Shown here piece by piece: positions 7,511 through 9,544 of a DNA stretch of 64,000 bases. The notes under the pieces are model-generated. The model was not told where the DNA came from, searched no databases, and saw nothing but the letters and a program-made list of their open reading frames with translations. Both the position numbers and the translations under genes were made by a program. The stretch's first letter is position 1. Each line of letters opens with the position of its first letter. The stretch covers positions 1 through 64,000 of IMG/VR virus record IMGVR_UViG_3300043442_000893. One strand, given 5' to 3'. The stretch comes from a virus (Duplodnaviria; Caudoviricetes).

Positions 7511-7722
7511 CTTTTGTCCTCTCGCAAATAACGACATGCGCATTTCACCCTTTCCAATCCTTTTGGCCGCGCTTGCCATCGGCACCATATGGGCCGGCCA
7601 AGATGCCTCCGCGCGGTTCAACCGCTGCACGGAATCGCAATCTCTCGCCCACTGCCGTCTTGTGTTCTACGGCCGCTGATTCCTCCTCTTTTCTGTTCTC
7701 TGTTCTCTCACCGTCTCTCGCT

Positions 7723-8472
7723 ATGGCCTCATTCAGCTCCGCCGCTCAGCTCCTCTCCTCCTCCTTTGTTTCCAAGGAGAGAGACAATGGCGAGCGGTTC
7801 TACTGCCTCTCAGACTCAACACCCGAGTGGTGTTCTACTGCCGTAATGCTGGCTCACGACAATGAGCTTCCCAATGATTCCCGTTATGCGCTCATCCGGG
7901 ATGCTGCCATTGCTCTCTCTGATCAGCAGTGTGATTCCGCAGAGGATGCGCAAGAGGCTCTATGGGAGCTCTCTTGTGATCTACTGCCGAGCTCTACTGC
8001 TGCTCTCCTCCAATGGTTTACTGATCGCCCGTCCCGCCTCTCAGACTGCGATGAGGCAGTTGAGGAGAACGGCTCCTCTTCTCTCTCTGTGACTGACCTT
8101 CTAGAGCTCGGACATAGGAGAGCTTCGGAGAGCGTTCTCTCTGTTCTCATTGCAGAGATCGAGGAGAATCGCGAGAGCCTGTTCAATCCAGAGGAGGATT
8201 GTCGGCTCCTCCTCTCAGACTCCCATGGGATATATATTCCGCAGCTCTACTGCCAAACCCTCTCAGAGGAGGAGGCAGAGGAGAGCGGTATCTCCTGGGA
8301 GGATGTTCTCCTCTGCCAGAGCGGTCCTGATGAGGAGCGCTATTGGGAGGCATGGCAGCAGATCTGTGATGCCGCGGAATGGGAGGAGGATGGAGAGACG
8401 TGGCGTCTCCTGCAGAATGGCGACCTCTGGCAAGTAAGGGCAGATGCTGTCATTCCTGAGGAGTGGCTTTAA
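7723..8472 (+). CDS. acidic two-domain protein, N-terminal Ocr-like DNA mimic (putative anti-restriction)
   Basis: Very acidic, almost no Lys; AEDAQEALWELSCDLLPSSTAALL resembles T7 Ocr [24 protein letters not shown]; C-domain LLLSD.HGIYIP...GPD...YWEAW...QNGDLW. Confidence 0.55.
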   Translation: MASFSSAAQLLSSSFVSKERDNGERFYCLSDSTPEWCSTAVMLAHDNELPNDSRYALIRDAAIALSDQQCDSAEDAQEALWELSCDLLPSSTAALLQWFTDRPSRLSDCDEAVEENGSSSLSVTDLLELGHRRASESVLSVLIAEIEENRESLFNPEEDCRLLLSDSHGIYIPQLYCQTLSEEEAEESGISWEDVLLCQSGPDEERYWEAWQQICDAAEWEEDGETWRLLQNGDLWQVRADAVIPEEWL

Positions 8473-8672
8473 TGCACCGCTTGCCTCTCTCTCGTGCTGA
8501 GAGCCCATACGTTAGTTGGGCTCTCTCTCTCGCTCTCTCGCAGTGTGAGCCAGAGGAGGAGGAGCTCCTCCTCTCTCTCCTCTCTCGCTGCGAGGCTCTC
8601 GCTCCTTACGCTCCTCTGCGCTCTCTCTCTGAGTGGCGCTCCTCTGTTCTCTCTCGCTCCTCCTCTCTCTAG
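8472..8672 (+). CDS. hypothetical protein (low-complexity DNA)
   Basis: TAATG coupling to upstream gene. Confidence 0.45.
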   Translation: MHRLPLSRAESPYVSWALSLALSQCEPEEEELLLSLLSRCEALAPYAPLRSLSEWRSSVLSRSSSL

Positions 8673-8676
8673 AACC

Positions 8677-9489
8677 ATGCTTGCAACCATGCTCAGCTCC
8701 TCTCAGCTCCTCTCCTCTGTTCAGGCTCTCTCAGAGCTCTCTGGGGAGTGGTTTTTCTATGAACCACGGCAGGAGATAGTGCGTTCCTCTGACTACTGTT
8801 CTCCCATTGAATGGCGGCAGCCATCGCCCAATGAGGCTGAAAGCCTCTGGCTAGGAGAGCTCTCCTCCTACTCCCTAGAGCTCTGTAGAGAGCTCGGCTC
8901 CTCTGTCACCAAAGTATCGCCAGAGGAGGCGGTTACGCTCCTCTGCGAGCGTAAGCTCTGGCAGCGATGCTCTCTCCTGTGGCTCCCTTCCTACTGTATG
9001 GGCGGTGACTACTGCGGCTCTACTCACCACATAGCCAACGCTCGCTATCTCCTCCAACGGTTCTCCTCGCCAGAGCTCAGAGAATGCAGCGGAGGCTATG
9101 GGAGCCAGGGAGTCATTGTCGACCCTCGCTATCTCTCAGAGGAGCTCCTAGAGCTTTTACAAAGCCTTGAGAGCTATCCCGTTCTCTGCGAGGAGGAGCT
9201 CTCCTCCTATGAGCTAGAGCTCCAAGATGAGACGTGGAAACATACGATCCGCAGAGAATGGGAGAGAGCTCTAGAGAGCGCTCTCTCCTCTCTCCTCTCA
9301 GACGAGGAGCTCGCAGAAACCACCGTAGAGAGCCTCTCAGAGGAGAGCCTGTTCTCTCTGTTCTCTCATTGCGCTGAGCTCTCAAACACCTACTGGGAGG
9401 CAGAGACTGGCACAAACATTTGGATCGACGTTGATCGCGTCGCTGAGAGCCTCTCAGAGGAGCTCCTCTCCTCGCTCCTCCCTTCCTGA
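8677..9489 (+). CDS. acidic phage early protein
   Basis: DY.GS...AN...GGYG...LESYPVL.EE..S..E.E...ETW motif; E/L/S rich. Confidence 0.7.
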   Translation: MLATMLSSSQLLSSVQALSELSGEWFFYEPRQEIVRSSDYCSPIEWRQPSPNEAESLWLGELSSYSLELCRELGSSVTKVSPEEAVTLLCERKLWQRCSLLWLPSYCMGGDYCGSTHHIANARYLLQRFSSPELRECSGGYGSQGVIVDPRYLSEELLELLQSLESYPVLCEEELSSYELELQDETWKHTIRREWERALESALSSLLSDEELAETTVESLSEESLFSLFSHCAELSNTYWEAETGTNIWIDVDRVAESLSEELLSSLLPS

Positions 9490-9544
9490 CAATAACGGCC
9501 GCATCCCGCGGCCTTTCTTCCTGCATTCCCTCGCGATCCCTCCA

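Follow-up and report, generated by a model that had tools for sequence, protein, structure and literature searches.

The T7 gene 0.3 protein Ocr (Pfam PF08684) is a DNA mimic that inhibits Type I restriction-modification (R-M) and bacteriophage exclusion (BREX) systems, and both the leading end of T7 DNA and the pre-early, first-step-transfer region of T5 place early anti-defence genes in the DNA that enters the cell first. To our knowledge, no purine/pyrimidine block style of writing genes has been described for T5 or T7. Codon supply can also decide the fate of a phage gene: according to passages of Zborowsky, Tahan and Lindell (2025; PMC11726456), Synechococcus WH5701 resists phage Syn9 through scarce tRNA-Leu(TAA). 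Here, a group of three small genes, ORF1, sORF and ORF2 (open reading frames, the second a small one; Table 1), is described in a 64,000-nucleotide stretch of viral DNA (hereafter the window; positions 1 to 64,000 of IMG/VR record IMGVR_UViG_3300043442_000893). Together with a terminator hairpin these genes form a self-contained, exchangeable accessory cassette at 7680-9513, and selection acts on their nucleic acid itself, over and above the proteins that it encodes. These two statements, taken jointly, are held with good confidence.

Results

The window had been annotated in a first pass by a model that saw only the letters and a list of ORFs. This first-pass annotation described an abrupt change of composition at 7680-9490, with runs of CTCT/GAGA, about 15 GAGCTC sites, few AA and TT, and proteins rich in Ser, Leu and Glu and almost free of Lys, a description that counting bore out. 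GAGCTC occurs 16 times (start positions 7966-9460) where about 0.44 copies are expected in 1.8 kb; outside the region, the window has 3 more copies and the remainder of the 75,295-bp genome has none (73 kb in total). CTCT occurs 85 times, or 47 per kb compared with 3.1 per kb elsewhere, and AA and TT fall to 24 and 36 per kb from 81 and 80 per kb. The GC content is 57-59% against about 49%, the words CTC, TCT and GAG are enriched 7.6-, 4.0- and 3.5-fold, and CTC and GAG together make up 40% of the bases of the region versus 8% elsewhere. Enriched words form reverse-complement pairs (CTC/GAG, TCT/AGA, CCT/AGG, TCC/GGA). Over the whole stretch, 4-mer entropy is at its minimum, 6.90-7.00, in those 1000-nt windows that begin at 8001 and 8501 (most others about 7.4-7.7). 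Leu, Ser and Glu (L+S+E) account for 45% of cassette residues versus 21.6% in 69 other ORFs, and Lys for 4 of 585 codons (0.7%) versus 4.8%, Asn and Ile being low as well. The sense strand is the richer in pyrimidine, with 168 CTC versus 99 GAG: tracts of at least 12 nt comprise eight of pyrimidine (4.4 per kb versus 0.30 per kb) and one of purine, five pyrimidine tracts reach at least 15 nt, and the longest tract measures 22 nt, most being of 8-15 nt. The leader and the sORF are CT-rich, with GAG scarce. The anomaly of the region is real and strongly non-random.

This composition, hereafter the style, is kept across relatives. A styled island is present in all eight viral loci with close ORF1 relatives (L001-L008; 54-90% identity), not all of them independent (ORF2 is identical in L004 and L008, and ORF1 88% identical in L004 and L005). 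No CT-type low-entropy window was found in the other 72 loci of the ORF1 homologue search, most of which match the C-terminal domain only, L027 matching ORF1 residues 9-238. A 14-mer search for styled islands, covering 80 loci (L082-L161) and yielding mostly chance matches, gave at least two true islands among the matches listed (L099, L107), both from relatives of the clade; at least seven of these 80 loci passed a screen on CTC+TCT density, true islands being told apart by AA/TT depletion together with multiple GAGCTC.

Within the cassette, Leu is encoded by CTC in 74% of cases versus 14% in the 69 other ORFs, Glu by GAG in 91% versus 36%, and Ser by TCT or TCC in 60% versus 34%; TTA and TTG each serve for one of 92 Leu codons. 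Codons for Asp, Asn, Tyr, Pro and Gly are chosen essentially as in the other ORFs, and the purine-rich Arg and Gly codons (AGA, AGG, GGA) are not favoured. Since Asp, Asn, Tyr, Pro and Gly are unchanged, the effect is word-specific, and a general adaptation to the host or of third-position GC was rejected. A comparison of synonymous codons with homologues, which the first-pass annotation had proposed as a check, revealed the same bias in the eight relatives. Among pairs whose proteins are less than 70% identical, conserved two-fold residues keep the same codon in a fraction of 0.50-0.62, that is, synonymous sites are saturated, so that the bias must be continually renewed.

Each gene was compared with synonymous shuffles that kept its protein and its own codon usage. 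In six lineages CTC (z 6.8-11.9), GAG (z 4.9-7.5) and TCT (z 3.5-8.5) exceed the shuffles, as do CTCTC, GAGAG and CTCCTC. The vocabulary is far smaller than in shuffles, with z -10 to -16 for distinct 6-mers and -12 to -19 for distinct 8-mers, the corresponding ranges for 13 control genes of the same genome being -0.1 to -6.3 and +0.7 to -3.4; the reduced k-mer diversity claimed earlier is thus real and goes beyond codon usage. Because words are in excess of shuffles that preserve codon usage, an explanation by codons or tRNAs alone is insufficient. Codons are chosen by context, purine following purine and pyrimidine following pyrimidine, which gives rise to CTC/TCY/GAG words and to the pyrimidine runs of the sense strand, and in the sORF CTC is equally frequent in all three frames. 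The nucleic acid is therefore under selection of its own, independent of frame.

A second dialect of the style was found in locus L209. There, the same slot (8400-10300, minus strand of the locus) holds an ORF2 relative of 259 amino acids (aa; 37% identity) and genes for two other proteins, 232 and 60 aa long, that are acidic and S/L/E-rich. Glu is GAA in 66 of 81 cases, Leu is CTG or CTT in 58 of 84, and AAG is freely used. Common words are GAAGCT, CTGGAAG and GCTTTCC, and reverse-complement pairs recur (GAAGC/GCTTC, GGAAG/CTTCC); AA/TT is not avoided, GAGCTC is absent, AGCT reaches 25.8 per kb and AAGCTT occurs 10 times. This dialect is also poor in vocabulary (distinct 6-mers z -8.8, 8-mers z -13.9). 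Its existence rules out causes tied to particular words, namely A/U-poor RNA, avoidance of AA/TT, a single tRNA set or a GAGCTC-binding factor. AGCT, considered as a common core, was rejected, being significant in dialect 2 only.

What both dialects have in common is a block structure, that is, few switches between purine and pyrimidine (R/Y switches). Switches number 31.9-37.8 per 100 nt in the six lineages of dialect 1 and 33.2 in dialect 2, compared with 45-51 in nine control genes. Against shuffles, z is -5.1 to -10.1 in dialect 1, -6.2 in dialect 2 and -3.8 in a weakly styled ORF2 homologue; eight of the nine controls lie between -1.3 and +1.6, and the ninth, the neighbouring 329-aa gene, at -3.0. 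Tracts of at least 8 nt occur at 21-28 per kb in five of the six dialect-1 lineages (15.2 in L003) and at 21.7 in dialect 2, versus 3-12 per kb in eight of nine controls and 17.2 in the 329-aa gene. Along the genome (mean 48.2 switches per 100 nt, standard deviation 3.5), 14 of the 15 windows of 600 nt with fewer than 40 switches fall at 7701-9101. The next-lowest values (about 40-41) were seen at genome positions 69,900-70,900, around 67,100 and at 1,600-2,500 and are much weaker than that of the cassette. Full-text literature searches, judged by title or abstract, yielded no description of such a block style.

The cassette occupies a hypervariable slot. The slot is flanked by small genes that adjoin replication and recombination genes and the ribonucleotide reductase gene, and the entire segment of about 6.4-12.2 kb is missing from phage S-CBS4. 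The 329-aa gene that anchors it on the right is common to 22 viral loci, 21 at 67-100% identity and one at 29%, and 13 of the 22 extend to the small genes on the opposite side. An ORF1 homologue is present in none of these 22 loci and an ORF2 homologue in one (L209). Alternative inserts encode GP88, DUF7227 and DUF7178 proteins and unnamed ORFs, with normal R/Y switching. Since the cassettes of close relatives at the same locus are unstyled, the style is a property of the cassette, not of its position. A 190-aa ORF of these alternative cassettes was considered as a methyltransferase and rejected, the resemblance being a motif impression with no Pfam match. L223 contains, at 802-1551, a CT-type stretch of 750 nt; this locus has the flanking genes, and homologues of ORF1 or ORF2 were not detectable in it.

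Metagenome runs tell the same edges. In two runs, depth is about 1-7 across 7711-9519 versus about 40-170 in most flanking bins, and contigs of abundant relatives track the window up to 7681 and again from about 9530, as loose ends. On the left, the R/Y profile falls at the leader; the unstyled 47-aa ORF just outside it is 94% identical in L219, a locus without the cassette, and is deeply covered in runs poor in the cassette. On the right, a similar hairpin lies just before the point where the relative's contig rejoins the window, and the island of L002 likewise ends in a hairpin with a T-run. Between the two edges the region is densely coding, with ORF1, sORF and ORF2 followed by the hairpin. 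Cassettes are mosaic, L006 being 86% identical to the window in ORF2 and 54% in ORF1, and relatives carry extra styled genes, one for an acidic protein of 91 aa and the other a Pro-rich ORF of 46 aa.

Both ORFs singled out by the first-pass annotation are conserved, as is a third gene that it had missed, the sORF, kept at the same position in seven relatives (40-62% identity). ORF1 has 184 homologues, all unnamed; its AlphaFold2 model has a predicted local distance difference test (pLDDT) score of 92.0, and its orthologues align nearly free of gaps across 249 aa. The N-terminal domain (N-domain) has the dense negative charge expected of an Ocr-type protein, with an isoelectric point (pI) of 4.12 and 29 acidic and 10 basic among 155 residues (family mean 21% acidic, 8% basic). 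A profile search with it retrieved, at E<=1e-3, 1814 cluster representatives, the majority of them acidic proteins that stand alone and measure about 155 aa. When a 110-member profile of this family was compared with a 24-member alignment of the Ocr family, used throughout these profile comparisons, hhalign returned 89% (E 2.3e-6, 60 columns), pairing N-domain residues 72-134 with Ocr residues 30-89. Pfam ocr was touched by 1 of the 110 members (E 0.0093), and a sequence-profile search of PDB with the N-domain reached the T7 Ocr chains 2y7c_D and 1s7z_A weakly (E 0.15-0.22); a sequence-profile search with ORF1 gave no solved-structure match. The top structural match in BFVD comes from the T7-like phage MedDCM-OCT-S28-C3 and is acidic and 161 aa long (E 5.4e-8, template-modelling score (TM) 0.78 on the target). 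About 950 bp of non-coding DNA separate its gene from the preceding terminase gene, and it lies between the genome end and the RNA polymerase gene, upstream of the latter, a position that we take to be the gene-0.3 slot of the T7 map. Prediction of an N-domain homodimer from two copies of the 110-member family alignment scored 0.39, the mark being 0.42.

Several results weaken the case for Ocr membership. The profile built from ORF1 orthologues only reached 5.6% in hhalign against the Ocr family (E 0.0069). ORF1 itself matched no Pfam family at E<=1, and Pfam ocr was not among the matches of its 72 orthologues at the same threshold. The Ocr-like fold put forward by the first-pass annotation did not emerge either: Foldseek gave 0 matches of the ORF1 model to PDB at E<=1e-3, with Ocr not among the listed matches, and a BFVD protein of a Streptomyces phage labelled 'OCR-like antirestriction protein' matched weakly (E 0.53, probability 0.84, TM 0.50). 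From the profile comparisons we conclude that the N-half of ORF1 is a putative remote member of an Ocr-related superfamily, outside Pfam ocr. The earlier claim of an Ocr-like N-half consequently stands as a remote relation that is seen with the broad family profile and is lost with the orthologue profile. By analogy with Ocr, the cassette proteins are probably anti-restriction in function.

The second acidic domain that had been noted in ORF1 is also real. Residues 162-248 match positions 8-93 of 110 of phrog_21544 (unknown function; E 2.6e-12), and this C-terminal domain (C-domain) has homologues in another 72 viral loci as well as in jumbo phages of Erwinia/Serratia. In 41 of these loci the domain is written with ordinary codons (CTC in 51 of 301 Leu, GAG in 94 of 262 Glu); in styled orthologues CTC serves for 42 of 61 Leu and GAG for 69 of 75 Glu. 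Elsewhere, the families of the ORF1 domains are not S/L/E-rich (L+S+E 0.21-0.24). ORF2, acidic as had been stated, has 139 homologues and a predicted structure with pLDDT 90.3. Its residues 154-214 alone match phrog_3906 (function unknown; E 6.8e-6); it has no Pfam match and no solved-structure match by fold (0 at E<=1e-3) or by sequence profile, and tblastn against named phages gave no match. ORF2 homologues at 37-42% identity keep an L+S+E of 0.43-0.45 with other codons, the family being inherently S/L/E-rich whatever codons are used. Blastn of the region against named phages gave no match, and the Protein Atlas no usable match. The starts of the proteins are alike: MASFSSAAQLLSSS in ORF1 (7723-7770), MLSSSQLLSSVQALS after the ORF2 start (8677-8740) and, resembling both, MTALFSLSSAAQAQAL at the start of the extra 91-aa protein of relatives (L004 3675-3730). 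Such likeness could reflect a common N-terminal signal or merely the style.

Removal of restriction sites had been proposed as the cause of the low k-mer diversity. The backbone, that is, the genome outside the island, does avoid palindromes: CAGCTG occurs 0 times versus 24 expected, ACCGGT, ACGCGT, CCCGGG and TTCGAA are all absent, CTCGAG occurs once, and GAGCTC 3 times versus 17-19 expected. The same avoidance pattern is found in S-CBS4, with one GAGCTC in 69 kb. CTCGAG is absent from all nine islands, where shuffles lead one to expect 3.9-7.4 per lineage: none of 69 Leu-Glu dicodons is CTC-GAG, and CTA, CTG, CTT or TTR for Leu, or GAA for Glu, is used instead. Glu-Leu dicodons are GAG-CTC in 70 of 94 cases. 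The exclusion of CTCGAG implies that restriction avoidance operates within the islands; it is ordinary restriction avoidance, a layer over the style and not its cause. Six-bp palindromes of the island are not depleted, numbering 17 without GAGCTC and AAGCTT versus 19.7 +/- 5.8 in backbone windows and 33 versus 22.6 with both included (14 versus 15.3 +/- 3.6 distinct ones; 4-bp palindromes, 76 versus 94.8 +/- 10.2), and GAGCTC is concentrated here, with 97 copies in 18.5 kb of islands versus 4 in about 136 kb outside. The first-pass annotation had named an undepleted set of recognition sites as an outcome that would refute its reading, and for 6-bp palindromes that is the outcome here; site removal is accordingly not supported as the cause. 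GAGCTC as a selected site was rejected too, being only mildly above shuffles (z 0.6-3.2; 16 versus 11.4 +/- 1.8 in the window). AAGCTT occurs 111 times in the genome versus 18.7 expected from base composition, dispersed over 1641-63970 of the window and beyond, with flanks that are not shared; none lies within 5030-10359. S-CBS4 contains 42 copies, and the word behaves as a highly iterated palindrome would in this group of phages.

The window is the first part of a single contig of 75,295 bp whose ends share a 127-bp overlap, which makes it a circular assembly with arbitrary coordinates; the deposited ends of S-CBS4 interrupt an ORF and are arbitrary as well. The gene set, by protein family annotation, is of siphovirus type and includes, besides the genes in Table 1, a head protease and tail fibres, ThyX, dCTP deaminase, endonuclease VII, a Sak annealing protein, a PD-(D/E)XK nuclease and an AAA_25 ATPase. 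Portal identity with Synechococcus phage S-CBS4 is 66%. The phage is an S-CBS4-like cyanosiphovirus of about 75 kb assembled from a freshwater metagenome, and matching DNA was found in freshwater, drinking-water, river, estuary and wastewater runs.

Table 1. Positions of the cassette, its parts and other features named in the text (aa, amino acids; pI, isoelectric point)
Feature	Position	Strand	Remarks
47-aa ORF	7536-7679	+	Unstyled; conserved left flank, outside the cassette
Pyrimidine-rich (CT) leader	7680-7722	+	Directly 3' of the stop of the 47-aa ORF; left edge of the styled cassette
ORF1	7723-8472	+	249 aa; two domains; pI 4.05; net charge -40
ORF1 N-domain	7723-8190	+	aa 1-156
ORF1 C-domain	8188-8469	+	aa ~156-249; second acidic domain
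GAGCTC sites (16)	7966-9465		14 of 16 are in-frame Glu-Leu dicodons
sORF	8472-8672	+	66 aa; ATG overlaps the ORF1 stop (TAATG)
ORF2	8677-9489	+	270 aa; pI 4.30; net charge -30
GC-rich hairpin with T-run on either strand	9497-9513		Likely terminator, by pattern scan; right edge of the cassette
329-aa gene	10412-11401	minus	Right anchor of the variable slot; no Pfam/PHROG family
Ribonucleotide reductase	12417-13904		
tRNA-Ile(GAT)	15467-15534		
tRNA-Leu(TAA)	16669-16743		
Large terminase	17205-18572	minus	
Portal	19138-21231		
Tape-measure protein	35583-41324		

Just 5' of the cassette, 6548-7450 is non-coding and full of direct repeats, among them a 33-nt unit repeated 2.6 times (6587-6671), TATGCGCA repeated 2.6 times and a 16-nt unit repeated 1.9 times; the words GTTCCGCAT and TGATCAGCAGC recur, and a bidirectional hairpin lies at 6548-6569. 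Comparable repeats precede the island of L002. The stretch could be an origin or a regulatory region. Elsewhere, genes of glycosyltransferase type (PHROG glycosyltransferase, Gly_transf_sug, DUF4422) lie at 25053-27701, between portal and head protease, near an AP_endonuc_2 TIM-barrel protein and a DAO-type oxidoreductase. Genome positions 71618-72373 (L201 8618-9370) encode a protein 59% identical to S-CBS4 gp086, annotated 'Rnase E' in its record, with no Pfam family at E<=0.001.

Discussion

The account that we prefer as a whole, and rate at slightly less than an even chance, is that of an exchangeable, Ocr-related cassette with a selected block style that serves a burst of expression at the transcript level. 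The proteins would act as decoys of the Ocr kind against Type I R-M or BREX-type enzymes and would be needed in bulk right after DNA entry. The block style would act in the transcript: pyrimidine blocks would offer landing sites for S1 and the 30S subunit in a host for which Shine-Dalgarno pairing matters little, and purine blocks would be Shine-Dalgarno-like. The near-absence of TTA and TTG from the dominant dialect would add to this, TTA being served by the phage's own tRNA-Leu(TAA), and the combined result would be a burst of expression from a naked incoming genome. That transcript-level expression is the reason for the style is a tentative proposal, which we regard as possible rather than probable. 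The pyrimidine-rich sense strand, the CT-rich leader and sORF and the unfavoured purine-rich Arg and Gly codons lean towards a role in the transcript over a strand-symmetric role in DNA.

A number of observations count against this account. Predicted RNA folding is stronger than in shuffles (mean z -1.59; 16 of 18 segments), because the enrichment extends to purine words that can pair with the pyrimidine words, and such folding does not favour ribosome loading. Selection for RNA structure was nevertheless rejected, as the mean z against permutations of 24-nt blocks is -0.22 (-1.06 for 12-nt blocks), making folding mostly a by-product of the vocabulary. Explanations by A/U-poor RNA (RNase E sites, U-tracts, rare tRNAs) fail as a general cause, dialect 2 not avoiding AA/TT. 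The style is weak in the ORF2 homologue of L233/L234 (42% identity) and is therefore dispensable for the proteins. A pattern scan found no sigma-70-type promoter in 6300-10500, and the alternative cassettes carry no known anti-defence annotation. A metatranscriptome run yielded contigs on the cassette at 85-95% likeness, and contigs cannot show transcription. Also conceivable, with the same reserve, is that the block structure is itself a functional and selectable trait of an anti-defence cassette, one that can be written in different dialects and would set the incoming DNA, or the first transcript made from it, apart from ordinary genes in behaviour; its possible effects include capture of ribosomes or S1, weak RNA-DNA hybrids, and the evasion or decoying of a host factor that responds to the shape of the nucleic acid and not to its sequence.

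Other explanations dispense with the transcript. The DNA that enters first might carry a minimised set of double-stranded k-mers and thereby few recognition sites for restriction enzymes or other sequence-specific sensors until the mimics are made, with lineages picking different safe vocabularies. We consider this, in essence the first-pass reading, unlikely. It would account for the number of distinct canonical 6-mers, which at 781 versus 1052 +/- 34 in backbone windows is far below shuffles, for enriched words that come as reverse-complement pairs in both dialects, and for the existence of two dialects, any small safe vocabulary being as good as another. The mildly lower count of 4-bp palindromes and the total exclusion of CTCGAG, from islands and from Leu-Glu dicodons alike in spite of dominant CTC and GAG, would also follow. 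However, 6-bp palindromes show no depletion, and GAGCTC, counter-selected in backbones, abounds in the islands. AGA, AGG and GGA would cost nothing in a vocabulary closed under reverse complement, and yet are not favoured; a 6-mer set smaller by 26% would shield 2 kb of 75 kb only if entry were stepwise; and close relatives keep unstyled cassettes at the same position. A role in DNA or hybrid structure (H-DNA, stiff A-like DNA from which bending proteins are shut out, control of R-loop stability, or shared microhomology that helps phages to exchange parts of cassettes) is quite improbable in our judgement. Tracts of at least 8 nt are denser in both dialects than in eight of nine controls, pyrimidine tracts of at least 12 nt are over-represented, and block structure is the one feature common to the dialects; pyrimidine RNA pairs weakly with a purine template, and the mosaic of L006 and the window would suit exchange. 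Against this, most tracts are short for H-DNA, conserved flanks alone explain exchange, and we know of no cyanobacterial sensor of, or factor for, polypurine.polypyrimidine tracts.

The style might instead be a functionless by-product, in which duplications and slippage in acidic, S/L/E-rich helical proteins caught in an arms race copy oligonucleotides, and founder words are inherited. To this we give little credence, even though the ORF2 family is S/L/E-rich whatever its codons, peptide motifs such as SLSEE recur with identical nucleotides, short tandem arrays are present (CT x9.5, CTCCTCTCT x2.1 and others), small indels separate relatives in Ser-rich stretches, and the dialects resemble founder effects. 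Slippage-driven turnover would not be expected to leave ORF1 orthologues that are almost gap-free and confidently modelled. The families of the ORF1 domains are not S/L/E-rich elsewhere. The style moreover persists at saturated synonymous sites, where Leu and Glu codon identity matches lineage usage and the bias is not confined to repeats, and codons are picked by context at junctions throughout. Pure adaptation to codons or tRNAs, by which early genes would be restricted to the codons of abundant host tRNAs before phage tRNAs exist or in hosts whose rare tRNAs are shut down, appears very unlikely. In its favour, TTA and TTG are nearly absent, Lys, Asn and Ile are scarce, genes for tRNA-Leu(TAA) and tRNA-Ile(GAT) are present in the phage, two-fold NAY codons, with one tRNA each, are not shifted, and scarce tRNA-Leu(TAA) is a documented route of Synechococcus resistance in the passages of PMC11726456 cited above. 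But out-of-frame CTC, GAG and TCT and the lengthening of R/Y blocks exceed shuffles that keep codon usage, Ser codons of three isoacceptor groups are picked by neighbour (for example GAG-AGC, CTC-TCN), and dialect 2 is free with GAA and AAG. Codon or tRNA adaptation may be a contributing factor.

Should the style be functional, synonymous sites of phage anti-defence genes would carry information hidden from gene-centred annotation, amounting to a layer of counter-defence encoded in those sites, and R/Y switches per 100 nt compared with synonymous shuffles could flag such cassettes in metagenomes. The relation of ORF1 to Ocr, if true, would extend the Ocr family to 1814 cluster representatives of stand-alone acidic proteins and to cyanosiphoviruses. 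A hypervariable accessory slot is identified in S-CBS4-like phages of freshwater picocyanobacteria, and the contrast between GAGCTC and CTCGAG offers a handle on the restriction specificities that phages actually face.

Comparison with known systems

The protein part of the cassette appears related to the known Ocr kind, and no described counterpart was found for a block style in two dialects. The absence of CTCGAG from nine islands, and its near-absence from backbones, resembles palindrome avoidance as it is seen in phages, unlike which the island keeps 16 GAGCTC and a total of palindromic sites that is not below that of the backbone. Like the tRNA-limited resistance of Synechococcus, for which the cited passages of PMC11726456 indicate that codon choice decides the translation of phage genes in such hosts, the present case features a phage with tRNA-Leu(TAA) and a cassette nearly without TTA; it departs from what those passages describe in that the style exceeds codon usage and differs between dialects. 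The early regions of T5 and T7 resemble the cassette in being compact sets of small genes, acidic or unknown in their products, whose action would be needed while the remaining DNA is still unprotected, whereas here the block is an optional cassette, replaced in close relatives.

The closest comparison is with T7 Ocr. Unlike Ocr, ORF1 has neither a Pfam ocr match nor a solved-structure match, its N-domain bears an extra N-terminal beta-hairpin in the AlphaFold2 model and is fused to a second acidic domain, its phage is a siphovirus, and its activity is a prediction. Like Ocr, the N-domain is a strongly acidic, largely helical small domain, with the profile-profile homology given above, and a stand-alone homologue of it stands at a gene-0.3-like place in a T7-like phage.

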